64,000 nt of DNA from an uncultured Collinsella sp. (GCA_905212545.1 CAJMEW010000001.1:21345-85344), one strand, 5' to 3'; positions 3,882-32,207 are shown, numbered from the stretch's first letter. Translations and numbers: made by a program. Notes: generated by a model from the sequence alone, not told the origin.

Positions 3882-3897
3882 AGGTGAACGTTCACCT
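3882..3897. promoter_or_regulatory. LacI-type operator AGGTGAACGTTCACCT (box 1)
   Basis: Perfect 16-bp palindrome with central CG, 100 bp upstream of the uxaC start. Confidence 0.6.
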
Positions 3898-3920: not shown

Positions 3921-3934
3921 GGTGAACGTTCACC
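3921..3934. promoter_or_regulatory. LacI-type operator GGTGAACGTTCACC (box 2)
   Basis: Second perfect palindrome 38 bp from box 1. It creates the spurious ATG at 3919. Confidence 0.6.
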
Positions 3935-10163: not shown

Positions 10164-10334
10164 ATCTCGATGACGGGGCTGCACAGTGGCTCCGTGCGAG
10201 GGAAGGGTTGCTACTGCGCGTTTGTGAGATGCTTTTCGGTGCCCTTTTCCGCACTGTTGACGTATCTATGGTTATTAATTCGGGCAAATTGGTTTAAGAA
10301 GCCGATTTCGTCCAGGTCGATAGAGGGGAATTGC

Positions 10335-13801: not shown

Positions 13802-14494
13802 CTAAATGCCTTTTGCTTCTGCTCCCTCCGCAATCATGTTGCGGTTATACACCAGGTGCAGATACATCGCGTCGTGCGCCGCGGTGGGATTGCGCGAGGC
13901 GATGGCGTCGGCCACATCGCGGTGCGTGCGGATAGTTTCCTCGACGAGCTTTTTGCCGGTCACGTCGATAAAGAGGGGGACGGATGCCTTGAACACGCCC
14001 ATCAGGCGGGGAACGACGAGGTTTCCGGAGCTCTCGGCAATGGCATTGTGGAACGCGGTGTCGGCGGCGGAGTAATCCTCACCGGCCTCGGCCAGGCGCT
14101 CGGATTCGTCGCAGAGCTCTTTGATACAGGCGACCTGGTCGTTGGTTGCGTGTTCGGCCGCCATGCGTGCTATCTGCGGCTCGATCATAAAGCGCACCTC
14201 GAGTAGGTCGCGCGCCAGACGCTGCTTGTCGTCGATAAAGGTAAAGCCCAGCGGGTCGTCGGCAACGCCGGGGTTTGACGCCACATAGGTGCCCGAACCC
14301 TGCTTAATGCGCACGATATTGCGCGACTGCAGCAACTTCATGGCCTCGCGCACGGTGCTCCTGCCGGCGCCCAAGCGCTCGACCAGCACGGTTTCCTTGG
14401 GCAGGCGATCGCCTTGCTCAAGGTGTTCATCCAGAATCAATTGAATGATTTTCTCCGATATTTGCTCGGGGAGTCCCGATTCGGCGCGGGCCAT
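13802..14494 (-). CDS. GntR-family (FadR/FCD subfamily) transcriptional regulator
   Basis: N-terminal wHTH (ISEKIIQLILDEHLEQGDRLPKETVLVERLGAGRSTVREAMKLL) and C-terminal FCD domain. Divergent from the gntP-dehydratase operon. ATG 14494 preferred over 14521 because of an AAAGG RBS. Confidence 0.8.
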   Translation of the reverse strand: MARAESGLPEQISEKIIQLILDEHLEQGDRLPKETVLVERLGAGRSTVREAMKLLQSRNIVRIKQGSGTYVASNPGVADDPLGFTFIDDKQRLARDLLEVRFMIEPQIARMAAEHATNDQVACIKELCDESERLAEAGEDYSAADTAFHNAIAESSGNLVVPRLMGVFKASVPLFIDVTGKKLVEETIRTHRDVADAIASRNPTAAHDAMYLHLVYNRNMIAEGAEAKGI

Positions 14495-14619
14495 AACTAT
14501 ACCTTTCATTACAAAATTCATCTGAGCTATTTTAGCGCACCACGGATGCGATATTGGCCGCTGGATTTGAGTCGGGCGGCTTAGATATACCGTTCGCAGC
14601 GCAAATACGACCGTTTACC

Positions 14620-14638
14620 AAATACATCAGATGTATTT
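14620..14638. promoter_or_regulatory. Perfect palindrome AAATACATC-A-GATGTATTT (candidate GntR operator)
   Basis: 9-bp perfect arms in the AT-rich divergent intergenic region between the GntR gene and gntP. Confidence 0.45.
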
Positions 14639-14687
14639 CGAACAAATTCCAAAATGAAACATCAGACCTTTCCAAAACACGCTATAG

Positions 14688-14716
14688 TCATCAGACGAAT
14701 TCAAAAGGTCTGATGA
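14688..14716. promoter_or_regulatory. Inverted repeat TCATCAGAC-n11-GTCTGATGA overlapping a TATAGT -10-like hexamer
   Basis: 9-bp perfect IR. A third direct ACATCAGAC copy lies at 14659. The repeat sits 13 bp upstream of the gntP start. Confidence 0.45.
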
Positions 14717-14728
14717 ATTGGAGGAAAG

Positions 14729-16090
14729 ATGTCAGACCCAACGTTTATGGCCGACCCCACCAGGCTGGTCATCGCCGCTATCGTGGGCATCGCGCTGCTG
14801 CTTGCGCTCATCATTAAGTTCAAGCTGCATCCTGTGCTTTCGATGATGGTCTCGGCGCTCGCGATCGGCATCGGCGCCGGTATGCCGCTCGACCTGGTGG
14901 CGGACACTGTCACCAAGGGCGTGGGAACCACGCTGCAAAACATCGCCCTGCTCATTGGCCTCGGCTCGATGTTTGGCCAGATTCTTGAGGAGAGCGGCGG
15001 CGCCAAGAAGATCGCCCAGACCTTCATCGATACCTTTGGGCAGGGTCATTCCAGCTGGGCGCTGGGCATTACCGGTCTGGTTATCGGCACTACGGTGTTC
15101 TTTGAGGCGGGCGTAGTCGTTTTGATTCCGCTTGCGTTTAGCGTGGCATCGCAGACCAAAAAGTCGACGCTCTACTACGGCATCGCGCTGCTCGCAGGAC
15201 TTGCCGCTGGCTATGCGTTTGTGCCGCCATCGGCCGGTTCGGTTCTGGTCGCCGGCACGCTCGGTGTCGACCTGGGCACCATGATTCTCGTTGGTATCCC
15301 TACCGCCTTCATCGCCATGGCGATCGCCGGCGTCATCTGGGGTCGCAACGTGGGCGGTCGCATTTTTACCGATGTTCCGGAGCACTTTACCTCTGCCGAG
15401 GGTGCGAGCGACGAAAAGGAGCTTCCCTCCTTTGGCATGGTGCTTGCCATCGTGCTCACGCCGCTTTGTCTGATTTTGCTGGGCACGTTGTCCTCTTATA
15501 TCCCCATGCCCGCCGAGCTCGCCTCGATTCTCGCCTTCCTGGGCAAGCCGTTCGTCGCTTTGACGCTCGCCACGCTCGTCGCGATGTATCTGCTGGGCGC
15601 GCGCCGCGGCTACTCCGGCGCCGAGCTCAAGGCCCTGCTCGACCGCTCTCTTAAGCCCGTCGGCATGATCTTGTTGGTTATTGCCTGTGGCGGCGTCATT
15701 CGCTGGATGCTGCAAGACTGCGGCTTGGGCCAGGTTATCGGCCCTATGCTCGAGGCCTCACCGCTGCCTTTGGTGGTCGTTGCCTTTTTGATTGCCGTCA
15801 TGGTGCGTGCCTCTGTCGGCAGCTCCATCGTCGCTATGACCATGGCATCGGGCATTATGGCCGCCATGCCTGCGGTCGCTGGTGCTTCGGTGCTCATGCG
15901 TGCCGCTATCTGTCTTGCCATCTGCGGCGGTGCCACGGCCCTCTCGCACGTCAACGATGCCGGTTTTTGGATGTGCTCCTCGTTCCTGGAGATTGACGAG
16001 AAGACCACCCTCAAGTCCTGGACCGTTATGGAGACGCTCATCGGCCTTTCGGGTCTTGTCTGCGCCTTGGTGATTTCGTTCTTCGCCTAG
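14729..16090 (+). CDS. gntP: GntP-family gluconate/sugar-acid:H+ symporter
   Basis: 453 aa, ~12-14 TM, characteristic GntP N-terminus (LLLALIIKFKLHPVLSMMVSALAIGIGAGMP). GGAGGAAAG RBS. Confidence 0.85.
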   Translation: MSDPTFMADPTRLVIAAIVGIALLLALIIKFKLHPVLSMMVSALAIGIGAGMPLDLVADTVTKGVGTTLQNIALLIGLGSMFGQILEESGGAKKIAQTFIDTFGQGHSSWALGITGLVIGTTVFFEAGVVVLIPLAFSVASQTKKSTLYYGIALLAGLAAGYAFVPPSAGSVLVAGTLGVDLGTMILVGIPTAFIAMAIAGVIWGRNVGGRIFTDVPEHFTSAEGASDEKELPSFGMVLAIVLTPLCLILLGTLSSYIPMPAELASILAFLGKPFVALTLATLVAMYLLGARRGYSGAELKALLDRSLKPVGMILLVIACGGVIRWMLQDCGLGQVIGPMLEASPLPLVVVAFLIAVMVRASVGSSIVAMTMASGIMAAMPAVAGASVLMRAAICLAICGGATALSHVNDAGFWMCSSFLEIDEKTTLKSWTVMETLIGLSGLVCALVISFFA

Positions 16091-16189
16091 TCGGGCTATT
16101 TACGCCGGGCCGTGCGCCCGGCACCAACAAACACAAGATTCATTAACCAACGATTGGTACAACCGTTCAAACCAAAAGAGGAGAACATC

Positions 16190-17968
16190 ATGGACGAAAA
16201 GACCAAGGCACAGATTCAGCAGGAGGCCGCCGACTTGGTTGCCAAGCTGCAGCCGCGTTCCGGCAAGTTCCGCACCATCAGCCCCGAGATGGACCCGCTG
16301 CGTCTGGGGTCTGGCTGGACCATCGAGGATCTGGACAAGCCGCAGGTCATTATCGAGTCGACGTTTGGCGACTCGCACCCGGGTTCTGCTGGCCTGTTTG
16401 AGCTGGTCGAGGAGGTCCGTGCTGGCGTTGCCGAGGCTGGTGGCCACGGTGCCCGTTACTTCTGCACCGATATCTGCGACGGCGAGGCCCAGGGCCACGA
16501 TGGCATCAACTACTCGCTGCCCAGCCGCGACATGATCGCCAACATGATCGAGATTCATGCCAAGGCCACCCCGTTCGACGCCGGCGTCTTTGTCGCCAGC
16601 TGCGATAAGGGCCTGCCTGCGAACCTCATGGCCATGGGCCGCATCAACATCCCCTCCATTGTCGTTACCGGCGGTGTCATGGATGCCGGCCCCGATCTGT
16701 TGACCCTGGAGCAGCTCGGCGCGATTTCTGCTCGCTACGAGCGCGGCGAGATCTCCCGCGAGGAGCTCGAGTTCGCCAAGCACAACGCCTGCCCCAGCTG
16801 CGGCGCCTGCTCCTTTATGGGCACCGCCTCGACCATGCAGGTTACCGCCGAGGCCCTGGGCCTCATGCTCCCCGGTACCGCCCTGCTGCCCGCTACCAGC
16901 TCCGACCTGCGCGAGTTTGCCCGCGAGGCCGGCCGCCAGTCCGTGTGGCTCTCCGAGCACAACCTGTGCCCGCGCGACATCGTGACCAAGGAGTCCTTCG
17001 AGAACCTCATCATGGTCCACGGTGCCATCTCCGGCTCAACCAACTCGCTGCTGCACATCCCCGCGATCGCCCGCGAGTTTGGCATCGAGATGTCCGCCGA
17101 CGATTTCGATCGCCTGCACCGTGGCGCCCACTACCTGCTCAACGTTCGCCCCGCAGGCGAGTGGCCGGCGCAGTTCTTCTACTATGCGGGCGGCGTGCCG
17201 CGCATCATGGAGGAGATCAAGTCGATGCTTCACCTCGATGTTATGACCGTCACCGGCAAGACTCTCGGCGAGAACCTCGAGGACCTCAAGAACAACGGCT
17301 ATTACGAGAAGTGCGGTCGTTACCTTGAGAAGTGGAATCTCAAGCGCGAGGACATCATCCGTCCGTTTGACCAGGCCTTCGGCACCGACGGCTCTATCGC
17401 CATCCTCCACGGCAACCTTGCCCCCGAGGGCGCGGTCGTCAAGCACACGGTTGTTCCGCGCGAGATGTTCCAGGCCACGCTTAAGGCTCGCCCGTTCGAT
17501 TGCGAGGAGGATGCTATCCACGCCGTCCTGACGCACGAGGTCAAGCCCGGCGATGCCGTCATCATTCGCTATGAGGGCCCCAAGGGTTCCGGTATGCCCG
17601 AGATGTTCTACACCACCGAGGCTATCGCCAGCGACCCCGAGCTGGGCGCGAGCATTGCCCTGATCACCGACGGCCGCTTCTCCGGCGCCTCCAAGGGCCC
17701 GGCTATCGGTCATGTCTCGCCCGAGGCTGCCGTGGGCGGCCCGATTGCCCTGATCGAGGAGGGCGACCTTATCCAGATCAACATCCCCGAGCGCTCGCTG
17801 TCCATCGTGGGCATCGCCGGCAAGGAGATGGAGCCGGCCGAGGTCGACGCCGTCCTGGCCGAGCGCCGAGCCGCTTGGAAGCCCAAGGCTAATCGCTATA
17901 CCTCCGGCACGCTCAAGTTCTTTACCGAGCATGCAGTTTCCGCCATTCAGGGTGGCTACATGGAGTAG
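16190..17968 (+). CDS. IlvD/EDD-family sugar-acid dehydratase (probable gluconate/aldonate dehydratase)
   Basis: Fe-S ligand motif CPSCGACSFMGTASTMQ, CDKGLPANLMA, C-terminal GPKGSGMPEM. 592 aa. Co-oriented 99 bp downstream of gntP. Confidence 0.8.
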   Translation: MDEKTKAQIQQEAADLVAKLQPRSGKFRTISPEMDPLRLGSGWTIEDLDKPQVIIESTFGDSHPGSAGLFELVEEVRAGVAEAGGHGARYFCTDICDGEAQGHDGINYSLPSRDMIANMIEIHAKATPFDAGVFVASCDKGLPANLMAMGRINIPSIVVTGGVMDAGPDLLTLEQLGAISARYERGEISREELEFAKHNACPSCGACSFMGTASTMQVTAEALGLMLPGTALLPATSSDLREFAREAGRQSVWLSEHNLCPRDIVTKESFENLIMVHGAISGSTNSLLHIPAIAREFGIEMSADDFDRLHRGAHYLLNVRPAGEWPAQFFYYAGGVPRIMEEIKSMLHLDVMTVTGKTLGENLEDLKNNGYYEKCGRYLEKWNLKREDIIRPFDQAFGTDGSIAILHGNLAPEGAVVKHTVVPREMFQATLKARPFDCEEDAIHAVLTHEVKPGDAVIIRYEGPKGSGMPEMFYTTEAIASDPELGASIALITDGRFSGASKGPAIGHVSPEAAVGGPIALIEEGDLIQINIPERSLSIVGIAGKEMEPAEVDAVLAERRAAWKPKANRYTSGTLKFFTEHAVSAIQGGYME

Positions 17969-22025: not shown

Positions 22026-22658
22026 ATGAACGACCGACCTCTCGTCATAGGCAAAGGAACGAAGCAACGCCGCGACAAATACACGTGGCGCTACCGTCAC
22101 AGCCTCGGCAAGGATCCGGTCACGGGCAAATACCGCTATTCGCCGTGGCAGACCATACATACCACCAAAAGCCGAGAGGTCGACGCCGCACTCGAAGCCT
22201 ACAAGGCAGAACTCAACAGCGGCACCTACGTCCAAAAATCGAGGGACACCGTCGGCTCGTACGCAAAAAAGTTCCACGACAACCGCGAAGGAACCATCAC
22301 GCCGCTCGCCTACTCGACATCCTACTCAATCGAGAACCGGACGCGCACATCACATGCGTGATGCTCATGCTCGACACCGACATGAGAAGGGCAGAAGCCC
22401 TCGGGATGACGTGGTCCGATGTCTCCGTCGAGAACAGAAGCATCCTCATTGAGCAGCAGTTCGCGGCCGATCGAAGCGTTCGCTCGCCCAAAAGCAAGAA
22501 AAGCGTGCGGAGGATCTCGATAAGCGAGACGCTGACGTCGTATCTCGAATTCTGGAAAAAGGAGCAGGCCCGCGAAATGGAAGCCTTCGGCCTGGAACAA
22601 GTCAAAGGCACTCCGCTCGTCCACTCATTCGAACGAACGAAAGACAGGCATCCCCAAG
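22026..22658 (+). pseudogene. Tyrosine recombinase (phage/ICE integrase) remnant, frameshifted and C-terminally truncated
   Basis: Arm-binding N-domain in one frame (YTWRYRHSLGKDPVTGKYRYSPWQTIHTTKSREVDAALEAYKAEL). The start of the catalytic domain, with the first conserved Arg, is in another frame (DMRRAEALGMTWSDVSVENRSILIEQQF...PKSKKSVRRISISETL). No HxxRHT...Y motif follows. Confidence 0.6.
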
Positions 22659-23467
22659 TCAACTTCATGGACCTGAATGGGTTTTCGCGCTGGTTCAGAA
22701 ACTTCAGCGTCGAGAACGGGTTCGGCAAGTTCGAAGGCGTTCGAACATACCATTATGTGAAGGAAACTGTCGACGGGGAAACGATTTCGAAGCGTTATGA
22801 GCATAAAGAGTGGCTCGAATTGAGGGATTACCTCAGGAAGCATCCCAAGGTTCGCGAGGCGAGGCATATCAGCACATATGAGAGCGAGCACCTTCCTTAC
22901 GGATATTCGGGCCTATCGAGCCACACCGCTACTGCCGCTACTGCCCGCTACTGCCCGCCAGCTTCCGAACCAGCGGGCGGTAGCAGCACCCCGAACATCT
23001 CGCCGACAGCGCAGAGAGTCGTCGACCTGGCGGCCAAGGCCGACATCGAGGACGTGATGCTGTGCGACCTGCCCGGCGTCCTGTCCTTCCTAGGGCTGCC
23101 ACCTGAGACGGAGATGCCGCCGGGCAACAAGGGGAAGACGAAGCTCAAGAAGCTCTACAGGAAGGTGGCGCCGAACAAGGCATACCACTCCGGCGAGCGC
23201 GCCAAGGATTTGATCTCGCACCTCGACATGGCAGAGATCAGGGCATCGGCGCCCGTCCAAGAATTGGGATGCAGTTCAATACGAGCTCGGGGCTCTTTTC
23301 GTCTAGATTGGGGACGCATGGCCGGACGAAAACAATTTGCGTCTGGTAATAAGCGTACGAAAGCGCAATTTACGTCTTAATTCCGTACGCAAATCAAGAC
23401 GAAAATCGTTTACGTCTGCTTTAATCCGTACGAAAACGGTTTTCGTCTTGCAGGGCAGTTGCCGTTT

Positions 23468-24559
23468 CTACAGTTCAACTTCCAGTTCGGCTTTGTGCTC
23501 GTAGAGGTAGTCGCGCATGTAGGGGATGGCAAATGAGACCTTGCCGTACGAGGGAGCCTCGATAATCGATTCTCTTAACAGGCGGCTGCGGACGGAACTC
23601 ACCTGTTGAGGCGTTTTGTTTAGGGCATCGGCAACCATGCTGGTCGAGCTCGTCTGCCCCAAAGATGCCATGCTCAGCAGATAAGCGATGCACGTGGGCG
23701 GAATGCGCTGTAGCGCGGGCTCAATCACCATGGCACAGAAGCGTTCGCGTGCCGTTGCAATGCCGCGCTCAGCTTCTTCTTCTCCAATAATCGGTGTATG
23801 TGCGCGTCTTGCCAACTGCCATGCGTAGTATCCAACGAGTTGGATCATGAAAGGATAACCTTGCGTTGCCTCGGCAAGTTGGCCGGCAATACCTGGCTGC
23901 AACTCCATGCCAGACGCTTCAATGGTTTCCTCGAGGGAGTACGACACTTCGGTTACTGCCACAGCCTTCAGGTCAAAGGGGAGGGCACGGCGCAAAAACG
24001 TAAGTGTCTTTCCGTTGATGATGCTTTCAATCATCGAAGGCAGCCCCGCAAAAACAAAGGCGATATCAAGGTCTTCGCCGATAACCTGCTGAATCGCAAT
24101 GGAGAGCGTTCGGACCTCATCGAGCTCTGCGTCTTGAACCTCGTCGAGAGTGATGAGCAGGCCATTTTCATTCTTGGATATTGTCTGTCTCATGGCGTCG
24201 CGTAGCGATGGACCGATTCGCTCAATGTCTATGCTGCCGATGGATATGCCAGCTACGGTGGGCTCAAATCTGGCGTGTTTGGCCTGGAATTTGGGCTGCA
24301 GCTGTTCGAGAATGCGTTGGCAAAGTCCCTCGGTTGCGACCTCTTTTATGACCGTCCAGCCACGGCTTTGCGCCAAACGTGAGCACTCGTCAAGGAGGAC
24401 CGTCTTGCCCGTTCCACGGACGCCGGCTATGCGCATTAGGCGCCCCGGGGCACCAGGCCCGTTGATGAGGCCTTCATTGAATTCTTCGAGTACATCTTCG
24501 CGGCCGATAATCGTGGGGGGTGTTTTACCTGCTGTGGGCTTAAAAGGGTTTGTTTGCAT
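23468..24559 (-). CDS. AAA-family ATPase with C-terminal winged-helix domain (ORC/Cdc6-like ATP-binding protein)
   Basis: Walker A GVRGTGKT, Walker B LLITLDEVQ, C-terminal wHTH-like region. ATG 24559 is preceded by AAAGGTGG. Confidence 0.7.
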   Translation of the reverse strand: MQTNPFKPTAGKTPPTIIGREDVLEEFNEGLINGPGAPGRLMRIAGVRGTGKTVLLDECSRLAQSRGWTVIKEVATEGLCQRILEQLQPKFQAKHARFEPTVAGISIGSIDIERIGPSLRDAMRQTISKNENGLLITLDEVQDAELDEVRTLSIAIQQVIGEDLDIAFVFAGLPSMIESIINGKTLTFLRRALPFDLKAVAVTEVSYSLEETIEASGMELQPGIAGQLAEATQGYPFMIQLVGYYAWQLARRAHTPIIGEEEAERGIATARERFCAMVIEPALQRIPPTCIAYLLSMASLGQTSSTSMVADALNKTPQQVSSVRSRLLRESIIEAPSYGKVSFAIPYMRDYLYEHKAELEVEL

Positions 24560-24578
24560 GTGAGCCACCTTTGCTCAA

Positions 24579-24650
24579 GATATAGCAAGATATAGCAAAG
24601 TATAGCAAGATATAGCAAAGTATAGTGAGATATAGCAACGTATAGCGCTG
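24579..24650. repeat. Tandem 9-10 bp direct repeats (rTATAGCAAr) x7, iteron-like
   Basis: gatatagcaa gatatagcaaa gtatagcaa gatatagcaaa gtatagtga gatatagcaac gtatagcgctg. Located 20 bp upstream of the ATPase start codon. Confidence 0.85.
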
Positions 24651-24672
24651 TTTGCGGGTTCTTACGGTGGTG

Positions 24673-25353
24673 CTATTTCCTGAATGCCGCGCGCACAAAG
24701 CGCTGAGCGAACAGCTTATTAGCGATGTTGATGACATGGCCCAAGAACAGCGCCGAGATGGCGGTGGTCACGCCAAAGCCGCCCAGGTTGTGCATGAGCG
24801 CGAGCGACAGAACGAGAGACACGGCGACATGCGAGCAGTCGAACACGACTTTTACGTCGCCAAAGCGGCGTTTAATCTTTTCGGCAATGACCTGCACCAG
24901 GCCGTCGGGCGCGTTGGGGACAACGCCCATGTTGACGACGAGACTTACGCCAAATGCAGTGACAGCGAGGGAGAGCAGCATGGTCTCAACCTGTATGGGG
25001 AGTACTGCGGGATGCAGCGGGTTGACCGCCGTGAAGAAGTCGGTGAAGCCGCCGATGAGCGTTGAGAAGCACAGCTCGAGCAGGATGCGCGGCTGGAACT
25101 CGCTTCGCAAGATGGCTAATTGCGCCACGATGTAGGCGACGTAGGCCGCGGTGATCCAAAAGCCGAGCGTCTTGCCCTTGAGCATGGATAGGGTTGTGGC
25201 AAAGCACGTGAGCGCGACGACGCCCAGGCCGGATGCCGTCTGGAGACTCATACCGAGTGCCAGTACTGCAACGCCCACCAGATACATCAGCATCCCGATG
25301 ACGATATGGAACCAATCGATCTTCTCGCCATTCATGATGATGAGCGGTCGCAT
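24673..25353 (-). CDS. YczE/YyaS/YitT-family integral membrane protein
   Basis: 226 aa, 5-6 TM helices, family-like composition. Function unknown. Confidence 0.55.
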   Translation of the reverse strand: MRPLIIMNGEKIDWFHIVIGMLMYLVGVAVLALGMSLQTASGLGVVALTCFATTLSMLKGKTLGFWITAAYVAYIVAQLAILRSEFQPRILLELCFSTLIGGFTDFFTAVNPLHPAVLPIQVETMLLSLAVTAFGVSLVVNMGVVPNAPDGLVQVIAEKIKRRFGDVKVVFDCSHVAVSLVLSLALMHNLGGFGVTTAISALFLGHVINIANKLFAQRFVRAAFRK

Positions 25354-25407
25354 GTTGCTACCCGTCCTTTCGGTTGTGTGAAAAAACTGACCCGGACCGG
25401 CAAAAGA

Positions 25408-25495
25408 GGGTTATCGGAGGCACTGCTGTTAAAGCAGAAAAGCCGGCCCCACGGTCAGTTGTCTAGGAAGTGTCTCGCTGTGCCGGAATGGGACT
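25408..25495. repeat. Family-5 conserved leader element, copy A (GGTTATCGGAGGCACTGCT ... CCGGC ... CCGGAATGGGACTG)
   Basis: The 19-mer and 14-mer are identical to those at 29736-29830, with similar spacing. Lies in the 5' region of the minus-strand yitT-like gene. Confidence 0.75.
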
Positions 25496-25538
25496 GAAGG
25501 GCCAGCGAGACGGGAGGAAAGCAAATGACATTGCGTGG

Positions 25539-25625
25539 GCAATAGGATGCCAAGATGGTAGGGTGCGTCTTAGCATCCTATTGCTCACGCTCGACGAAAT
25601 CGGTTTCGTTTGAGCCTTAGTATAC
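25539..25625. promoter_or_regulatory. Family-4 module, copy A: hairpin (12-bp stem GCAATAGGATGC, 22-nt loop CAAGATGGTAGGGTGCGTCTTA), LacI-type box CGAAATCGGTTTCG (25595-25608), then TAGTATAC
   Basis: Same architecture and loop sequence as 31004-31110, but with an unrelated compensatory stem. Confidence 0.75.
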
Positions 25626-25662
25626 GCACGGGATTCTATTTGCAAAGAGAAAAACAATAAAA

Positions 25663-25677
25663 AGTGAACGTTCACCT
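25663..25677. promoter_or_regulatory. LacI-type operator AGTGAACGTTCACCT (box 3, same as uxaC operators)
   Basis: 12-bp core GTGAACGTTCAC identical to 3884-3895 and 3922-3933. Lies 165 bp upstream of the HIT-gntP2 operon. Confidence 0.6.
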
Positions 25678-25709
25678 AATCGTAACAACTCGTTGGCTGT
25701 ATCATGGCG

Positions 25710-25743
25710 GTAGTCGATACGAAACCGATTTCGTATCGACTAC
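25710..25743. promoter_or_regulatory. 34-bp near-perfect palindrome GTAGTCGATA-CGAAACCGATTTCG-TATCGACTAC (KdgR-type box with extended arms)
   Basis: The core 14-mer is the reverse complement of the CGAAATCGGTTTCG boxes at 25595 and 31079. Lies 98 bp upstream of the HIT start. Confidence 0.65.
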
Positions 25744-25840
25744 GCATGCGTTGTATCTGTCCATTATCTGGTGGTGTAAACGAGGGGTTACACCTGCCGC
25801 AAAAGCGGCATTCATCATTGTCCAGATTGAAAGGATCACC

Positions 25841-26275
25841 ATGGAACAGCATACCGATTGCTCGTACTGCATGTGCGGGACCGACAACACGCTCGTCGAT
25901 GCCTTTGGCATCCCCATGCTTGACCTGCCTGCCAGCAAGCTCATCTTGTTTAAGGAGCAGAGTCATAAGGGCCGCGTAATCGTGGCCTCCAAGCAGCACG
26001 TCGATGACATCTCCTGCATGTCCGAGGAAGACGCCGCCGCCTTTATGGCCGATGTCCGCCACGTCGCGGCAGCGCTGCACAAGGCGTTCAATCCCGACAA
26101 GATTAACTTTGGTGCCTACGGCGACACCATGCATCACCTGCACGTGCATATCGTCCCCAAGCACAAGGACGACCCGTTTGAGTTTGGCGACGTGTTTGCC
26201 ATGAACCCCGGTCGCGTCACGCTCGAGTCGGCTCAGTACGACGAGATCGCCCAGGCAATTGTCGCCAACCTGTAA
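25841..26275 (+). CDS. HIT-family (histidine triad) protein
   Basis: 144 aa with a HHLHVHIVPK histidine triad. AAAGGA RBS before ATG 25841. Confidence 0.8.
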   Translation: MEQHTDCSYCMCGTDNTLVDAFGIPMLDLPASKLILFKEQSHKGRVIVASKQHVDDISCMSEEDAAAFMADVRHVAAALHKAFNPDKINFGAYGDTMHHLHVHIVPKHKDDPFEFGDVFAMNPGRVTLESAQYDEIAQAIVANL

Positions 26276-26342
26276 GCGAGTAAAAGCGGCTATTTCGAAT
26301 AGAAGCACTTGGCTTCATTGCCAGTTAAAAAGGAGCTTATCT

Positions 26343-27677
26343 ATGAATGCGGGAGTTGTTTCACTCCTTTGGGTGCTGGTGGGCGTAGTCCTGCTGGTCG
26401 CCATGATCGTTAAGTTTAAAATCAACAGCATCATTGCGCTTATTCTTTCCGCCATTTTTATCGCCCTTGCCGACGGCATCTCTGTGGGCGACCTTGTCAC
26501 CACCATGGAAGATGGACTGGGCGGAACGCTTAAGTCGCTTGCGCTGATCATTATCTTTGGCGCAGCCATCGGAAAACTGATGACCGATTCGGGTGCCTCG
26601 CAGCAGATTGCCGACACTATCGTTGACAAGCTCGGTATTAAGCTGCTGCCTGTTGCGCTTCTGATCATCGGCGTTATCTTTGGTATGAGCATGTTCTACG
26701 AGGTGGCGTTCCTTATCGTTACGCCGCTCGTTATCAGCATCGCCAAAGAGGCCGACATCCCCTATATGCGCCTGATTATCCCGGCTGTTTCTGGTACCAC
26801 GATGGGCCATTCTCTTTTTCCGCCGCAGCCTGGTCCTATGGCGCTGGTGAGTGCCTTTGGTGCCGAGGTTCCGCCGGTCTACATCTTCGGTCTGATCGTC
26901 ACGATTCCGACACTTATCTGCTCTGGTCTTTTGCTGTGCCATTTCATCCCCGGTCTCGATGACATGCCGCTTGGCAATGTTATGAAGCCGGCGGAGCGCA
27001 GGCCCGCGGACGAGCTTCCGCCGTTCTGGCTTTCCATTCTGGTGCCGCTGTTCCCGGCAATCATCATGATTGGGGCTTCGATTATCAAGAACACGGTGGG
27101 CGAGGGTTGCTTTGCATACGATCTTGCCAGCTGCATCGGTAGCGCAGATATCACTATGCTCATCACGATGATTCTTGCCATGGTTGCGTATGGTTATACG
27201 CGCGGCATGGATGGCGGAGAGATCTCTAGCTCTATGTCCGATGCTATCAAGGGCGTCGCGAACGTGCTGCTCGTTATCGGTGCCGGCGGCATCATGAAGC
27301 AGGTCATCATTACTTCTGGCGTTGGCGCGACGCTTGCCGACATGGTGAGCCTCATGCCGGTGTCGCCGCTGATTTTGGCTTGGGTGATCACGGTGGTCCT
27401 GCGCCTACTCACCGGCCAGGGTACCGTCTCGGCCATCACCGCCGCCGGCGTCGTGGCGCCTATGGTTACGCAGTTTGGCATCAACCCGGTGCTTGCAGTA
27501 CTGGTCTGCGCCTGCGCATCCAATACCATCACGCCTATGTATGACGGCGGCTACCTGCTGTTCCAGCAGTCGTTTGGCCTGTCGATGAAGGATACCTATA
27601 AGACATGGGGCCTGTTGGAGCTCGTCAACTCCGTTGTCGGCCTCATCATGGTTCTAATCCTGAGCCTGTTTATCTAG
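26343..27677 (+). CDS. GntP-family permease (second copy)
   Basis: 444 aa. N-terminus LLWVLVGVVLLVAMIVKFKINSIIALILSAIFIALADG is paralogous to 14729-16090. AAAAGGAG RBS. Confidence 0.85.
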   Translation: MNAGVVSLLWVLVGVVLLVAMIVKFKINSIIALILSAIFIALADGISVGDLVTTMEDGLGGTLKSLALIIIFGAAIGKLMTDSGASQQIADTIVDKLGIKLLPVALLIIGVIFGMSMFYEVAFLIVTPLVISIAKEADIPYMRLIIPAVSGTTMGHSLFPPQPGPMALVSAFGAEVPPVYIFGLIVTIPTLICSGLLLCHFIPGLDDMPLGNVMKPAERRPADELPPFWLSILVPLFPAIIMIGASIIKNTVGEGCFAYDLASCIGSADITMLITMILAMVAYGYTRGMDGGEISSSMSDAIKGVANVLLVIGAGGIMKQVIITSGVGATLADMVSLMPVSPLILAWVITVVLRLLTGQGTVSAITAAGVVAPMVTQFGINPVLAVLVCACASNTITPMYDGGYLLFQQSFGLSMKDTYKTWGLLELVNSVVGLIMVLILSLFI

Positions 27678-27783
27678 GCGAGAAACGCATAAGACAAGCG
27701 TGTCTCACCGCAAGCCCGCGGACAGTTGCCTATCAAACTGTCCGCGGGCCTTTGCTTTTAATACCACCGCCATGTCGCACCCG

Positions 27784-27870
27784 CCCCCCCCATAAGTTGC
27801 GGTGGAATTGTCCCTGTTTTTGCTGCTTACGGCTTTTAGCAGGAACTATTCCACCGCAACTTATGGGGGG
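27784..27870. repeat. Family-1 hairpin repeat, copy 2 (CCCCCCCATAAGTTGCGGTGGAAT ... ATTCCACCGCAACTTATGGGGGG)
   Basis: Perfect 24-bp inverted arms including C7/G6 clamps, 39-nt loop. Lies between gntP2 and gntR2. Confidence 0.85.
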
Positions 27871-27933
27871 ACGGGGGATGCGATAGTATTGCATGGTGGT
27901 ATTCGACTAACCGAGGGTTTATCCGAGGGCTTT

Positions 27934-28626
27934 ATGGAACAGCACCAGCATTATCAGAGCCTGCAAGACCAGGCGTACAACGCATTGCGGTCCAAGATCA
28001 TCTATGCCGAGCTCAAGCCCGGCACGCGCCTTTCGGCGATTGGTCTGGAAAAAGAGACGGGAATCGGGCGCACGCCCATTCGCGAGTCCTTTGTGCGTCT
28101 GCGCGAGCAGGAGCTGGTGGAAACGCGTCCCAAAAGCGGTACCTATGTCTCAAAAATCAGCATGGAGCGTGCCGAGAACGCCTGTTTCTTGCGCGAGAAA
28201 CTCGAGAGAAGCGTACTCATTAAATGCTGTTCTGCCGCCACGCCCGAACAAAAGCATCGGCTCGAGCAGATTCTTGCCGAGTCCGAGTCGCTCGACCATA
28301 GCGAAACGCGTCGCTTTTTCGATCTGGACAACCTGTTCCATGAGACATGTTTTGAGATTGCCGGTCGTCACATGTTGTGGGATTGGATGAAGAGCATCAA
28401 CACGCATTTTGAGCGATACAACTGGTTGCGTATGGTGTCGCAGGATCTGGATTGGGAGCCGATTCGTCGGCAGCATCGCCGGATTCTCGAGGCCATTAAG
28501 AGGGGCGATACCGACGCGGCGAGCTATCTGGCAGAGACGCACCTGCACCTGATGCCCGAAGAGCAGGGCCCGGTTATCGCCTTGCATCCCGACTATTTTG
28601 AGCTGTCCAAAGACTCGGCCATCTAA
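27934..28626 (+). CDS. GntR-family (FadR/FCD subfamily) transcriptional regulator (second copy)
   Basis: wHTH (LQDQAYNALRSKIIYAELKPGTRLSAIGLEKETGIGRTPIRESFVRL) plus FCD domain. 230 aa. GAGGGC RBS. Confidence 0.8.
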   Translation: MEQHQHYQSLQDQAYNALRSKIIYAELKPGTRLSAIGLEKETGIGRTPIRESFVRLREQELVETRPKSGTYVSKISMERAENACFLREKLERSVLIKCCSAATPEQKHRLEQILAESESLDHSETRRFFDLDNLFHETCFEIAGRHMLWDWMKSINTHFERYNWLRMVSQDLDWEPIRRQHRRILEAIKRGDTDAASYLAETHLHLMPEEQGPVIALHPDYFELSKDSAI

Positions 28627-28641
28627 CTCGTCCCCTTCATT

Positions 28642-28708
28642 AGTTGCGGTGAAATAGGGATTGTTTTGCGGCTCTGATGGTGTAAACAGTCCGTATCTCA
28701 CCGCAACT
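28642..28708. repeat. Family-1 hairpin repeat, copy 3 (AGTTGCGGTGAAATA ... TATCTCACCGCAACT)
   Basis: 15-bp arms with one mismatch, 37-nt loop. Lies 16 bp after the gntR2 stop. Confidence 0.8.
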
Positions 28709-28734
28709 GCCGGGGTACTATCGGGGCACAAAAA

Positions 28735-28806
28735 AGCTGCGGCGCCGCTTGGAGGAAAAGACCGGAAGCAAGGGTCCATTCCTCCAGACGGCGCCGCAGC
28801 TGTTTT
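28735..28806. repeat. Nested compound hairpin (outer AGCTGCGGCGCCG/CGGCGCCGCAGCT, inner TGGAGGAA/TTCCTCCA) with T-tail
   Basis: 13-bp perfect outer stem enclosing an 8-bp inner stem-loop, followed by GTTTTGG. Confidence 0.6.
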
Positions 28807-28965
28807 GGTGGCTCGGCTTTTGTCGAAGTGTCTCAGTTGAGCGCGGTTGCCAGCCGAGTAGGCAAAGCGGCTCGGGGGCGTGTCGCTTCCGTCACGTTCT
28901 ATCAGCATACAAGACGGTTTTGGTTCTTGTTCGTGACGGAAACGGCGCGCTTCCGAGCCGCTTTA

Positions 28966-29003
28966 AAAGAAAGGGGGCGAGGTCTAGGGCACGCCCCCTT
29001 TCA
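28966..29003. terminator. Terminator downstream of eda (minus strand)
   Basis: AAAGGGGGCG-aggtctagg-GCACGCCCCCTTT. Confidence 0.6.
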
Positions 29004-29019
29004 CGATAGAGAGCTAAAC

Positions 29020-29661
29020 CTAGTCGCGGACCTTCTTGACGACGTCCATGGCCTCGCGGGCGATCTGCTCGACCTTGGAGAAGTCGCCGTCGGCAAACAG
29101 GGCCGGCTTGACCATCCAGGTGCCACCGCAGGCGATGATGGCGGAGGAGCTCAGGTACTCCTCGACGTTGGCGGCGCTCACGCCGCCAGTGGGCATAAAG
29201 CGGTGACCGACAAACGGAGCTGCGAGGGCCTTGATGGTGTTCAGGCCGCCATACTGGGACGCGGGGAAGAACTTGGTGACCTTGAGGCCCAGGTTCTCGG
29301 CTGCGGTGACCTCGGAGGGGGTCACGGTGCCGGGAAGGACAGGCAGGTCGATGTCGATGCAGTGCTTCACGACGTCCTCGTTGTAACCCGGGGAGACGAT
29401 GAACTTGGCACCGGCTGCGCGGCCCTGCTCAACCTGCTCGACGGTCAGGACGGTGCCGGCGCCAACGCACATCTCGGGCTCGGCCTCGGCCATAGCGGCG
29501 ATGCACTCGGCGGCGCAGGCGGTGCGGAAGGTGACCTCGGCGGACTTCATGCCAGCTGCCATAAGGGCGTGGGCGAGCGGAGCAGCGTCCTCGACTTTGT
29601 CGAGCACGACGACCGGCACGATACCCAGGGACTCAAGCGTGGTGTAGAACTGATCGAACAT
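29020..29661 (-). CDS. eda: 2-dehydro-3-deoxyphosphogluconate (KDPG) aldolase / KHG aldolase
   Basis: GIVPVVVLD, active-site region GAGTVL, KFFPA..GG motifs. 213 aa. ATG 29661 with AAAGGA RBS. Confidence 0.85.
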   Translation of the reverse strand: MFDQFYTTLESLGIVPVVVLDKVEDAAPLAHALMAAGMKSAEVTFRTACAAECIAAMAEAEPEMCVGAGTVLTVEQVEQGRAAGAKFIVSPGYNEDVVKHCIDIDLPVLPGTVTPSEVTAAENLGLKVTKFFPASQYGGLNTIKALAAPFVGHRFMPTGGVSAANVEEYLSSSAIIACGGTWMVKPALFADGDFSKVEQIAREAMDVVKKVRD

Positions 29662-29735
29662 AATGTTCCTTTCGATGTATGGCGCGCATAGGCGCGTGAT
29701 TGCCAAATATGCTGGTCAGGAGCCGATTTTGGATT

Positions 29736-29830
29736 GGTTATCGGAGGCACTGCTTGGGGTTCAAGCAATTCCAAAACCGGCTGCTCGACCAGTCGTGTAG
29801 GGAATGCCAGACAAAACCGGAATGGGACTG
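29736..29830. repeat. Family-5 conserved leader element, copy B (between kdgK and eda)
   Basis: GGTTATCGGAGGCACTGCT at 29736-29754 and CCGGAATGGGACTG at 29817-29830, matching 25408-25495. Confidence 0.75.
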
Positions 29831-29914
29831 GTGGTTTTGCCCGGCCGGAGGAATCGGGGAGCGGGCCGCAGGGGTATGGGATTGGAAAGCTGCGGCCCGC
29901 GGAATGGAGACGGA

Positions 29915-30952
29915 CTAGCGCGCGACGCGGGTGCCACCGTCGGCGGCGGATGCCACGGCTGCGATCTCGTCTGCGGTCACCAAGTTGGAATCGCCCTTGA
30001 TGGTGAGCTTGAGGATCGAGGCTGCAATCGCGTAGTTGACGGCGTCCTGCGGGTCAAAGTCGTTGATGAGGGCATGGACGAAGCCGGCGTTGAAAGCGTC
30101 GCCGGCGGCAACGCCCTCGAGCACGTGCACATCGTGAGCAGGGGAGAACCAGTACTCGCCGCTCTCGGCGTCAAAGAGCATGCCCATCCAGATGGAGCGC
30201 TCGACGCAAGAGATGTTGCGGACGACCGAGGCGACCTTTTTGCAGCCGTACTCGGCGCAGATCTGACGGGCCATCTCGACGTAGGTGTCGCGCTCCTCGA
30301 TGCCATGGGCAAGGGAACCAGAGACGCAGGTCATGCCGAGGCCGGCGGGCGCATCCTCGTCGTTGGCGATGCAGATGTCGACGAGCGGCAGGAGTTCTTT
30401 CATGGTGGCCTGCGACTTCTCGGGCGACCACATCTTGCCGCGATAGTTCACGTCGCACACGGTGGTGATGCCCTTGGCGCGGCAGGCGGCGAGTGCCTCC
30501 TTGCAGGCGGCGGCCATCTCATCGGAGACGGCGGGGGTCACGCCGGAGAAATAGAAGACATCGATGCCCTTGAGGATCTCGTCCCAGTCAAAGACGTCGC
30601 GTTTGGCCATGTTGATGGCAGAGAACTTGCGGTCGTAGACGCAGCCGTTGCCGCGCTGCGAGGCGCCGACCTCAAACACATAGGAGCCAAGACGGTCGCC
30701 CTGACGCACGACGCGCGTTGTGTCGACGCCGTAGGCCTTCAGCGAGCGCAGCGCGCACTCGCCTAGGCGGTTGGCCGGGACAACGGAGACGTAAGCGGCC
30801 TTGTCGCCTTGGTAAGCCAGGGAAAGCGCGGTGTTTGCCTCGGCGCCGCCGTAGCGGACGTCAAACTCGGTTGCCTGCTCAATGCGCAGATGATCTTTGG
30901 GCGAGAGCCTCATCATGATTTCGCCGAAGGTAAGAACCGTTTTACCCATGGT
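29915..30952 (-). CDS. kdgK: 2-dehydro-3-deoxygluconokinase (PfkB family)
   Basis: N-terminal GEIMMRLSP and GGAEANTALSLA, C-terminal GAGDAFNAGF. 345 aa from ATG 30952. Confidence 0.85.
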   Translation of the reverse strand, partial: TMGKTVLTFGEIMMRLSPKDHLRIEQATEFDVRYGGAEANTALSLAYQGDKAAYVSVVPANRLGECALRSLKAYGVDTTRVVRQGDRLGSYVFEVGASQRGNGCVYDRKFSAINMAKRDVFDWDEILKGIDVFYFSGVTPAVSDEMAAACKEALAACRAKGITTVCDVNYRGKMWSPEKSQATMKELLPLVDICIANDEDAPAGLGMTCVSGSLAHGIEERDTYVEMARQICAEYGCKKVASVVRNISCVERSIWMGMLFDAESGEYWFSPAHDVHVLEGVAAGDAFNAGFVHALINDFDPQDAVNYAIAASILKLTIKGDSNLVTADEIAAVASAADGGTRVAR

Positions 30953-31003
30953 CGCGCAGCTCCTTCTTGCTCGTGCGTACACCTTTGATATGGCGTTGGC
31001 GCG

Positions 31004-31110
31004 GAGGTGCCAAGACGGTAGGGTACATCTTTGCACCTCCGCGCCAACGCTTGCCGAAATCGGTTTACGAAATCGGTTTCGTTTCGAGTTGTAGTATACT
31101 CACCTACAAC
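31004..31110. promoter_or_regulatory. Family-4 module, copy B: hairpin (18-bp stem GCGTTGGCGCGGAGGTGC, loop CAAGACGGTAGGGTACATCTTT), tandem boxes CGAAATCGGTTTACG / CGAAATCGGTTTCG (31066-31092), then TAGTATAC
   Basis: Divergent region between kdgK and the KdgR-like gene. Loop and boxes match copy A; stems are compensatory. Confidence 0.75.
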
Positions 31111-31184
31111 GTTTTGCAAGCGAGATTTTTAAAAAAATGCCTAAAATGGCTCAGACTGCTGACAATTGGGAAACGGGGTGCGCC

Positions 31185-32207
31185 ATGGCGCAGATGAGAA
31201 TCAAGGACATTGCCGCCGAGGCGGGCGTGAGCCCGGCCACGGTCTCGCGCTATCTCAACAACCGCCCCGGGCAGATGACCGAGGAAACCCGCGCTCGCAT
31301 CGCGGCGGTTATCGAGCGCACCGGCTATCGCCCACGTGCTGCCGCGCGCAATCTGCGCAGCTCGCGCACCAACCTCATCGGCGTGATCCTGGCCGACATC
31401 GCCAACCCGTTCTCCAGCGCTATGCTCGAGGACCTTTCCGCCAGCGCCGCCGCGCGCGGCTGCTCGCTCATGACGGCCATTAGCGGCAACGATCCCGCCA
31501 AGGAGGCCGAGTCGCTCACCAGACTTATCGATGCCGGCGTGGACGGCCTGGTCGTCAACACCTGCGGAGGCAATGACGAGGCGATCGCCGCGGCAGCGGG
31601 ACGTCTGCCCGTCGTGCTGCTCGACCGCGACGTTGCCGACGGCGGTGTCGATCTGGTGACATCTAACAACCGTGAGCTGGTCGCCGGCTTGGTAGACGCC
31701 TTGGCAGCTGCGGGCAGCGAGCGTCTGTGCCTGCTCACCGAGGCAAGCGACGATAGCCCCGTGCGTCGAGAGCGCGCCGAGGCCTTTGCCGACGAGCTTT
31801 CGCGCCGCGGCCTTGCGGGCGAGGTCGTCACCCTGGCCGACGGTGGCGCCACGGGCGTTGGCCGTTTGGACAAGACCATCCGCGACTACGCGGGCAAAAG
31901 GCTCGGCCTTATCGCCGTCAACGGCCTGGTTTTCCTGCGTCTGACCGAGGCGCTGGCGCAGCTTGGTCCCTCGCTGCCGGCGGGGCTCAAGATCGCGACG
32001 TTTGACGACTACCCCTGGAACCATGTGCTCTTTGGCGGCGTCACCACGGCCGCGCAGGACACCCTCACCATTGCCGAGCGCGTAGTCGAGCGCCTTTCCG
32101 AGCGCATCGACGTCGTTACCACCACCGTGGGCGAGGCCGCAAAGCTGGCGCCCAAACGCATCGAGATCCCCGGCCACATCGAACACCGCGCCTCGACCTC
32201 GCGCTAG
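31185..32207 (+). CDS. LacI-family transcriptional regulator, KdgR-like (candidate repressor of kdgK-eda)
   Basis: HTH_LacI (MRIKDIAAEAGVSPATVSRYLNN) plus a sugar-binding domain. Divergent from kdgK. Its own promoter carries the CGAAATCGGTTTCG boxes. Confidence 0.8.
   Translation: MAQMRIKDIAAEAGVSPATVSRYLNNRPGQMTEETRARIAAVIERTGYRPRAAARNLRSSRTNLIGVILADIANPFSSAMLEDLSASAAARGCSLMTAISGNDPAKEAESLTRLIDAGVDGLVVNTCGGNDEAIAAAAGRLPVVLLDRDVADGGVDLVTSNNRELVAGLVDALAAAGSERLCLLTEASDDSPVRRERAEAFADELSRRGLAGEVVTLADGGATGVGRLDKTIRDYAGKRLGLIAVNGLVFLRLTEALAQLGPSLPAGLKIATFDDYPWNHVLFGGVTTAAQDTLTIAERVVERLSERIDVVTTTVGEAAKLAPKRIEIPGHIEHRASTSR

Follow-up and report, generated by a model that had tools for sequence, protein, structure and literature searches.

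A predicted LacI-family regulon at kdgK-eda and a conserved RNA motif in two of its leaders in an uncultured Collinsella sp.

In Bacillus subtilis, the LacI-family regulator KdgR is known from the kdgRKAT/kduID regulon, which serves the metabolism of 2-keto-3-deoxygluconate (KDG). KDG kinase and 2-keto-3-deoxy-6-phosphogluconate (KDPG) aldolase, encoded by kdgK and eda, represent the lower half of the 'alternative' gluconate pathway. Operators of the LacI family are palindromes with a central CpG, at which a leucine of the hinge helix inserts, a role derived from the structures of PurR and LacI, and lacO1 is centred at about +11. For the catabolite responsive element (cre) bound by CcpA, the consensus is TGWAANCGNTNWCA. 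In this study, we analyzed a stretch of 64,000 nucleotides from an uncultured Collinsella sp. (GCA_905212545.1 CAJMEW010000001.1:21345-85344; the window) with regard to a 16-bp palindrome (the box), which recurs upstream of kdgK-eda, of a gene for a YczE-like (DUF6198) membrane protein and of HIT-gntP2, and which lies beside the gene of a LacI-family regulator. The features in question are listed in Table 1.

Genes of the window were called by Pfam and NCBIfam profile searches; thereby, the gene identities given in an earlier reading of the same sequence (the original prediction) were confirmed. For phylogenetic comparison, eight orthologous loci (L001–L008; regulator identity 90–56%) and 80 further loci (L009–L088; GTDB species representatives, C. 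aerofaciens group; regulator identity 96–100%) were used. Together, these 88 loci comprise 1.48 Mb.

The 16-bp box and its promoter context

The 16-mer ACGAAAYCGRTTTCGT (ACGAAAyCGrTTTCGT) is present in three exact copies in the 64 kb, listed as operators in Table 1. The original prediction was based on the 14-mer CGAAATCGGTTTCG or its reverse complement, which indeed occurs exactly at 25595-25608 and 25720-25733; also the near-perfect 34-bp palindrome around the second site is real, with 16/17 pairs matching. At 31 kb, its coordinates were off by 11–12 nt. The third exact copy, reported for 31079-31092, is located at 31068-31081 (31079-31092 reads TCGTTTCGAGTTGT), and the supposed one-base-insertion variant at 31066-31080 is really CGAAATCGGTTTAC at 31055-31068, with 2 substitutions and no indel. 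The corresponding auxiliary 16-bp box is degenerate and, at a distance of 13 bp, overlaps the main box; L001, L002 and L004 retain a second site equivalent to it (ACGAAAGCGATTTACG). As proposed before, the box has the shape of a LacI-family operator, i.e. an even-length palindrome within the range of 14–20 bp with a central CG (ACGAAAT-CG-GTTTCGT in the three exact copies). Dinucleotide-preserving shuffling yielded on average 0.77 matches at ≤2 mismatches compared to 9 strand-hits observed, and since none of 100 shuffles reached 9, the recurrence of the box is not explained by chance. A match with 2 mismatches at 10296-10311 is one-sided and non-palindromic and was taken as a chance occurrence.

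Conservation of the box was most informative upstream of kdgK. In L001, L002 and L004–L008, kdgK-eda is divergent from the regulator gene; in L003, the regulator gene is kept, the synteny with kdgK-eda is lost and the box is absent. In the syntenic loci, the intergenic DNA has diverged and the 16-mer is held with 0–1 mismatch, at a fixed distance of 10 nt from an invariant AGTATA. On the minus strand, TATACT is invariant in 8/8 divergent loci and is preceded at 15–16 nt by TTGCAA, GTGACA or TTTACA in seven of them, L007 having no clear −35 hexamer. TATACT and the upstream hexamer predict a sigma-70-type promoter pointing at kdgK. In the window, the main box begins 10 nt downstream of TATACT, and from this geometry the operator would cover roughly positions +5 to +20, counted from the inferred start of the kdgK-eda transcript. 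A promoter on the plus strand, which would place the box at the −35 region of the LacI gene or of HIT, was rejected because the plus-strand hexamers vary among species (TAGTAT, GAGTAT and CAGTAT; TATACT, TATAGT and TATACG), while the minus-strand TATACT is invariant. This reading is further ruled out by L007, where a YoeB/YefM toxin-antitoxin cassette is inserted between kdgK and the regulator gene: box and −10 element stay with kdgK, and the box is found 100 nt upstream of it.

The location between kdgK and the LacI gene, already pointed out in the original prediction, is conserved in all 56 loci which keep kdgK (among the 88 loci with regulators 56–100% identical). Across species, the box is thus kept in promoter regions of functionally linked genes beside the regulator gene. 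Among the features mapped in the 1.48 Mb, no boxes at ≤2 mismatches were found beyond the contexts of kdgK, DUF6198, HIT and a short-chain dehydrogenase gene of L004. The latter gene is kduD-like, and the third box of L004 upstream of it (ACGAAATCGGTTTCAT, 356-371) has a minus-strand TATACT 11 nt away, a layout similar to that at kdgK. This box is predicted to extend the regulon in the L004 species.

In the 25.6-kb intergenic region, positions 25526-25650 are a paralogue of the kdgK upstream region with the order hairpin, box, 9 nt, AGTATA, 15 nt and TTGCAA. The 25.5-kb and 31-kb modules share about 81–125 nt at 72–76% identity. A promoter scan of the region gave a single match, on the minus strand and towards the DUF6198/YczE-like gene, and the box at 25594 begins 9 nt downstream of the −10 element of the YczE-like promoter. 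The promoter-operator module was found in 19 of 21 distinct DUF6198 upstream sequences, most of them from genomes without HIT-gntP; the box at 25594 was therefore assigned to the membrane-protein gene. Both boxes of this region had been taken to predict co-regulation of HIT-gntP2, which stands for the box at 25719 and is given up for that at 25594, part of the module of the divergent YczE-like gene. Judged from these arrangements, the 25.6-kb intergenic region is not one regulatory unit.

The box at 25719 is located 107 nt before the HIT start and 13 nt after a candidate TG-TATCAT −10 element of HIT-gntP2, which are predicted to form one operon (25841-27677, plus strand). In HIT-bearing loci, the box is found about 107–114 nt upstream of HIT and is conserved in 20 of 21 cases, the remaining locus having an 11-bp internal deletion. 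It is identical in 12 HIT-carrying loci, including L002 (81% identity), whose flanks lack the extended palindrome. A decay of the HIT box upon loss of gntP was not borne out: 8 loci lack gntP behind HIT within the sequence examined, and in these the 14-mer core is retained and the flanking A/T alone change.

The candidate repressor and alternative explanations

The LacI-family gene next to kdgK is complete. Its long open reading frame contains a LacI-type helix-turn-helix (HTH) motif (PF00356, E=1e-16, residues 22-66) followed by an effector domain matched by Pfam Peripla_BP_1, Peripla_BP_3 and Peripla_BP_4. From residue 5, the protein aligns over its full length with the solved LacI-family proteins 3bil and CcpA, and its hinge segment YRPRAAARNLRSS (AARNL) aligns with YRANAQARALRSS of 3bil. 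The closest relatives are Collinsella proteins, and we place the window in a genome of the Collinsella aerofaciens group. The HTH motif is nearly invariant across orthologues, which matches the invariance of the operator.

We consider it probable that the 16-bp palindrome is the operator of this protein, which would act as repressor of three units. Transcription of kdgK-eda (minus strand) would start at the TTGCAA-N15-TATACT promoter described above, with the operator at about +5 to +20; the YczE-like gene (minus strand) would be driven by the paralogous promoter-operator-hairpin module; and HIT-gntP2 (plus strand) would be controlled from the operator that closely follows the candidate −10 element, ~107 nt ahead of the start codon. 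At the transcription start or immediately behind it, a bound repressor dimer would block transcription at initiation or early in elongation, and would be released by a sugar-acid intermediate, most plausibly KDG as judged from its position in the pathway. Repression as the direction of control is what we infer.

The identity of the binder has to be weighed against other proteins encoded nearby. A second LacI-family gene (2624-3703) linked to uxaC and two GntR/FCD genes share the island, and the boxes might be operators of this paralogue or of a CcpA-like global catabolite regulator, with the neighboring protein being merely adjacent. We regard this as unlikely, although the box has a cre-like architecture (xGAAAn-CG-nTTTCx), CcpA is among the family matches of the regulator and the family is represented in the genome. 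Box and regulator orthologue are co-localized in 7/7 divergent syntenic loci, L002 and L006 have additional boxes where the regulator gene starts, and the three sites of the 64-kb island include none at uxaC, gntP#1 or the dehydratase genes. The paralogue has a different recognition helix and a palindrome of its own, GGTGAACGTTCACC, which is present twice between its gene and uxaC (3883-3896 and 3921-3934), and the GntR/FCD gene is missing from the syntenic neighborhood in L002 and L004–L008, where the box persists. Co-localization therefore favors the protein encoded at 31185-32207, which is most likely the box binder, as far as the comparison of loci can tell.

That the palindrome acts at the RNA level, as a 5′-terminal hairpin of the kdgK and yczE-like transcripts which influences mRNA stability or processing instead of binding a repressor, seems quite improbable. 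At the predicted 5′-end, the box could form a hairpin of 6 bp, and in both transcripts it is directly followed by a conserved, covarying 23-bp hairpin; the box is also conserved without this hairpin in L004–L008, and the L002 and L006 boxes stand upstream of the LacI gene on the other strand as well. Moreover, the box is invariant and not covarying, and its central Y/R variation breaks complementarity (TCGG, TCGT), a pattern which fits protein recognition. Least probable of all is a duplicated or mobile promoter-box-hairpin module in which the box has no regulatory role of its own. Such an origin would agree with the similarity of the 25.5-kb and 31-kb regions and with a surrounding region that is a patchwork of insertions and deletions among strains, but the HIT box and the boxes of L004–L008 are embedded in otherwise unrelated sequence, and no other element of the module is as conserved as the box across species with regulators 56–90% identical.

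Several points weigh against the assignment of the box to the neighboring repressor. Its pairing with the protein rests on co-localization in an island with further candidate regulators. The general cre shape of the box makes a global CcpA-like binder conceivable. NCBIfam provided no equivalog for the regulator (generic LacI-family or other equivalog models alone, all below cut-off), and the kinase is below the KdgK cut-offs. The promoters are predicted from consensus; the promoter scan found the one at 25.6 kb and missed the one at 31 kb, whose 15-nt spacer is outside the scan range. Finally, 28 of the 88 loci (e.g. L015, L017, L022) carry a clean deletion from the GntR/FCD stop to exactly the −10 element (window equivalent ~28627-31098; end ..CTCACCTACA), by which eda, kdgK, hairpin, box and −10 are gone and the LacI gene is left intact. 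In these close relatives, which belong to the aerofaciens group, no box was found within 10 kb of the intact regulator gene; this would mean that the regulator either controls additional genes elsewhere or has no tie to the box. The same loci bear on the proposal that the regulator itself belongs to the regulon. As its gene is kept intact without the box, there is no autoregulation through the kdgK box in these 28 strains, and targets elsewhere are presumed. Autoregulation is doubtful for this lineage; dedicated boxes at the LacI gene start occur only in the more distant species L002 and L006.

The second palindrome probably serves the hexuronate-linked paralogue as operator, and two regulons would then overlap. 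GGTGAACGTTCACC was also observed once between the yczE-like promoter and HIT (25663-25676). In relatives, it was detected in L001 at 4046 and in L004 at 430 and 3284, in the latter locus also just before the kdgK-linked regulator gene.

Hairpin and RNA motif in the leaders

The kdgK hairpin is located in the 5′-untranslated region (UTR) between operator and ribosome-binding region, and its paralogue opens the yczE-like leader. The conserved loop corresponds to CCAAGAyGGTAGGGTrCrTCTT in plus-strand orientation and to ..ACCCUACC.. in the RNA. Of the 644 stem cells in 28 distinct variants, 585 are Watson-Crick pairs. The two paralogues differ at six stem positions, all of them compensated, and at stem position 12 a switch from G-C to C-G occurs within the kdgK copies. 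The hairpin is present only in the aerofaciens group and in L001 and L002; it is absent in L004–L008 and is therefore a lineage-specific addition. Intrinsic terminators were excluded, as there is no T-run on either strand and a terminator scan was empty. Integron attC-like elements (judged by eye) and dispersed repeats resembling miniature inverted-repeat transposable elements were rejected as well, since the loop motif is confined to two positions in the window and the fetched loci. Comparison with Rfam gave spurious miRNA-type matches only. Possible roles of the hairpin are stabilization of the mRNA 5′-end, processing by RNase III or protein binding.

Further downstream in the same two transcripts, a structured RNA motif of ~150 nt was detected, once between kdgK and eda and once in the yczE-like leader. 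Both copies have invariant loop and junction sequences (CAGUCCCAUUCCGG; UUCCCUA.AC; GCAGUGCCUCCGAUAACC) and different stem sequences. A covariance model recovered both window copies, together with copies in the eda leaders of L001, L002 and L004 and in the yczE-like leader of L001; with the same search, the motif was found neither in L005–L008 nor elsewhere in the window. Scanning of metagenomes revealed it in at least 119 contigs from the human gut. Of the 133 classified copies, 85 precede eda and 48 precede DUF6198, i.e. no third gene context was found among them. In 69 distinct sequences, 98.1% of cells pair, compared to 28–44% in slid controls, and 13 of 19 modeled pairs change on both sides, a covariation which largely reflects the two paralogue classes, with independent events modest in number. 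G-U pairs are frequent, which places the motif on the gene strand. Thus, the RNA motif is well supported as a real, selected structure. None of 4227 Rfam families matched, with nothing above noise on the two regions at E≤10 and no gathering-level match in the window. In the yczE-like copy of the window, U6 follows the outer stem, a hint at termination control; this tract is not conserved in the eda copies.

The motif may be a new cis-regulatory RNA, and the conserved-loop hairpin may be part of the same post-transcriptional system. Binding of a small molecule is speculation. That the two leaders represent a new riboswitch class which senses an intermediate of the KDG/KDPG route (e.g. KDPG, a toxic 2-keto acid), layered on the LacI-type repressor, is a tentative idea to which we give a limited chance. 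A literature search on a yczE- or eda-linked riboswitch gave nothing relevant. Of all elements of this locus, the unannotated motif upstream of eda and the yczE-like gene is the only one that could be new biology.

Gene neighborhood and comparison with known systems

Table 1. Features of the Collinsella window discussed in the text; positions are counted from the first nucleotide of the window.
Feature	Position	Strand	Description
Integrase remnant	22085-23380
Separate repeat family outside the regulon	23296..23448		Five imperfect palindromes ending in TTTNCGTCT
AAA_16 ATPase	23468-24568	-
DUF6198 / YczE-like integral membrane protein	24673-25353	-	Pfam DUF6198; weak NCBIfam YczE match
RNA motif copy 2	25372..25523	-	YczE-like leader; model R1 144 bits; fold z-score -7.1
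YczE-like 5′-UTR hairpin	25533..25590	-	Start of the yczE-like leader; paralogue of the kdgK hairpin
Predicted YczE-like (DUF6198) gene operator	25594..25609		ACGAAATCGGTTTCGT; exact match
Predicted YczE-like promoter	25619..25645	-	-35 TTGCAA 25640-25645, 15-nt spacer, -10 TATACT (complement 25619-25624)
Predicted HIT-gntP2 operator	25719..25734		ACGAAACCGATTTCGT; centre of 34-bp palindrome 25710-25743; exact match
HIT-family gene	25841-26275	+	Pfam HIT
GntP-family permease (gntP2)	~26343-27677	+	Pfam GntP_permease; NCBIfam gluconate:H+ symporter subfamily above cut-off
GntR/FCD regulator	27934-28626	+
eda, KDPG/KHG aldolase	29020-29661	-	Pfam Aldolase; NCBIfam eda subfamily above cut-off
RNA motif copy 1	29698..29857	-	Between kdgK stop and eda start; model R1 167 bits
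kdgK, PfkB-family KDG-kinase-like	29915-30949	-	Pfam PfkB
kdgK 5′-UTR hairpin	30993..31050	-	23-bp stem, 12-nt loop with conserved ACCCUACC
Auxiliary degenerate box	31054..31069		CCGAAATCGGTTTACG; 13 bp from main box, overlapping it
Predicted main kdgK-eda operator	31067..31082		ACGAAATCGGTTTCGT; 16-bp palindrome, central CG; exact match
Predicted kdgK-eda promoter	31093..31119	-	-35 TTGCAA 31114-31119, 15-nt spacer, -10 TATACT (complement 31093-31098)
LacI-family regulator, complete	31185-32207	+	Pfam LacI HTH and Peripla_BP domains

For the kdgK product, the best NCBIfam models were a KDPG-aldolase/kinase fusion and KDG/KDGal kinase, all below equivalog cut-offs. The rest of the window is a sugar-acid island with the second LacI-family gene, uxaC, an MFS_2 transporter, a mannitol-dehydrogenase-type oxidoreductase, altronate dehydratase, a second GntR/FCD gene, GntP#1 and an ILVD_EDD dehydratase; a uxaB-like gene and uxaA are among the pathway genes encoded in the window. 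The routes of the island (uxaC, uxaB-like, uxaA, GntP#1, ILVD_EDD) yield KDG, the substrate for KdgK and then Eda, and this pathway logic speaks for the predicted regulon. At 13802-17968, a GntR/FCD regulator, GntP#1 and the ILVD_EDD-family dehydratase are grouped together, and these genes plus kdgK-eda form the 'alternative' gluconate pathway (dehydratase, KDG kinase, Eda). In commensals, this pathway has been tied to competition with Klebsiella for gluconate in a 2024 study (PMC11424487).

Behind the integrase remnant, the original prediction had placed three degenerate boxes, possibly decoy sites. A cluster does exist, including GTACGAAAACGGTTTTCGTCT at 23428-23448, and it comprises five units (23296-23448), not three. 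Each unit has the form (G/T)ACGAAAA-N3-6-TTTNCGTCT. Decoy or degenerate boxes were excluded by the half-site spacing (5–6 nt compared to 4 nt in the box) and by the absence of 16-mer matches at ≤3 mismatches in the units. The cluster beside the AAA_16 stop is conserved in many Collinsella genomes, in which the DNA to the left differs, and in four genomes nothing but the right half of the last unit is left. Tentatively, it may be a recombination or att-type junction beside the integrase remnant.

Further repeats were observed in the neighborhood. A 10-bp tandem repeat (GATATAGCAA/AGTATAGCAA) of 7 units (24576-24650) immediately precedes the start of the AAA_16 ATPase gene; across Collinsella genomes, 3 to 9 copies are present. 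The GntR/FCD gene is flanked by long hairpins (27786-27870 and 28642-28708) with the arms AGTTGCGGTG...CACCGCAACT in common, and in genomes without HIT-gntP this hairpin element directly follows the yczE-like module. These hairpins may be insertion/deletion scars or a repeat element. Between the converging 3′-ends of the GntR/FCD gene and eda, two long inverted repeats with arms of 35 nt (28729-28807) and 33 nt (28864-28964) are probably terminators or repeat elements.

Taken as a whole, the predicted regulon is an ordinary KDG-type LacI-family regulon. A literature search on a KdgR-type regulon of Collinsella gave nothing relevant, and routine as it is, the regulon gives a first outline of control at the point where hexuronate and gluconate catabolism converge in a common human-gut actinobacterium. 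Variation among strains, i.e. loss of kdgK-eda together with the operator and HIT with or without adjoining gntP2, means that Collinsella strains differ in their use of sugar acids and in how this is controlled.

Compared to riboswitches, the RNA motif is similar in having a conserved covarying structure on the gene strand upstream of an open reading frame, in leader or intercistronic position, with compensated stems and invariant loops and junctions; it differs in that all copies observed are from a Collinsella subclade and precede eda or the yczE-like gene. With cre, the box shares the architecture of its 14-mer. In contrast to the cre consensus, the outer bases are C..G, not T..A (CG...CG in all copies), and, compared to a CcpA system with its many sites across diverse catabolic operons, the box seems limited to one pathway node as far as the window (three sites in 64 kb, linked to a local regulator gene) and the 1.48 Mb of related loci show. 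As with lacO1 and PurR operators, the box is an even-length palindrome with a central CpG just downstream of the predicted transcription start, and like LacI and PurR the Collinsella protein has an HTH motif and a putative hinge segment with Leu. Unlike LacI, it ends at residue 340 with no C-terminal tetramerization helix visible; looping between the two 25.6-kb boxes (125 bp apart) is therefore not expected.

The closest counterpart is KdgR of B. subtilis. The Collinsella regulator gene is divergent from its targets, whereas that of Bacillus is the first gene of the operon, the predicted Collinsella regulon takes in a YczE-like membrane protein and HIT-gntP, and the host is an actinobacterium (Coriobacteriia); the likeness comes from the gene set, with no NCBIfam equivalog. 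In common are a LacI-family regulator beside genes for KDG kinase and KDPG aldolase (Eda above, the kinase below cut-offs), a palindromic operator at the promoter and, in L004, a kduD-like dehydrogenase gene with a box.

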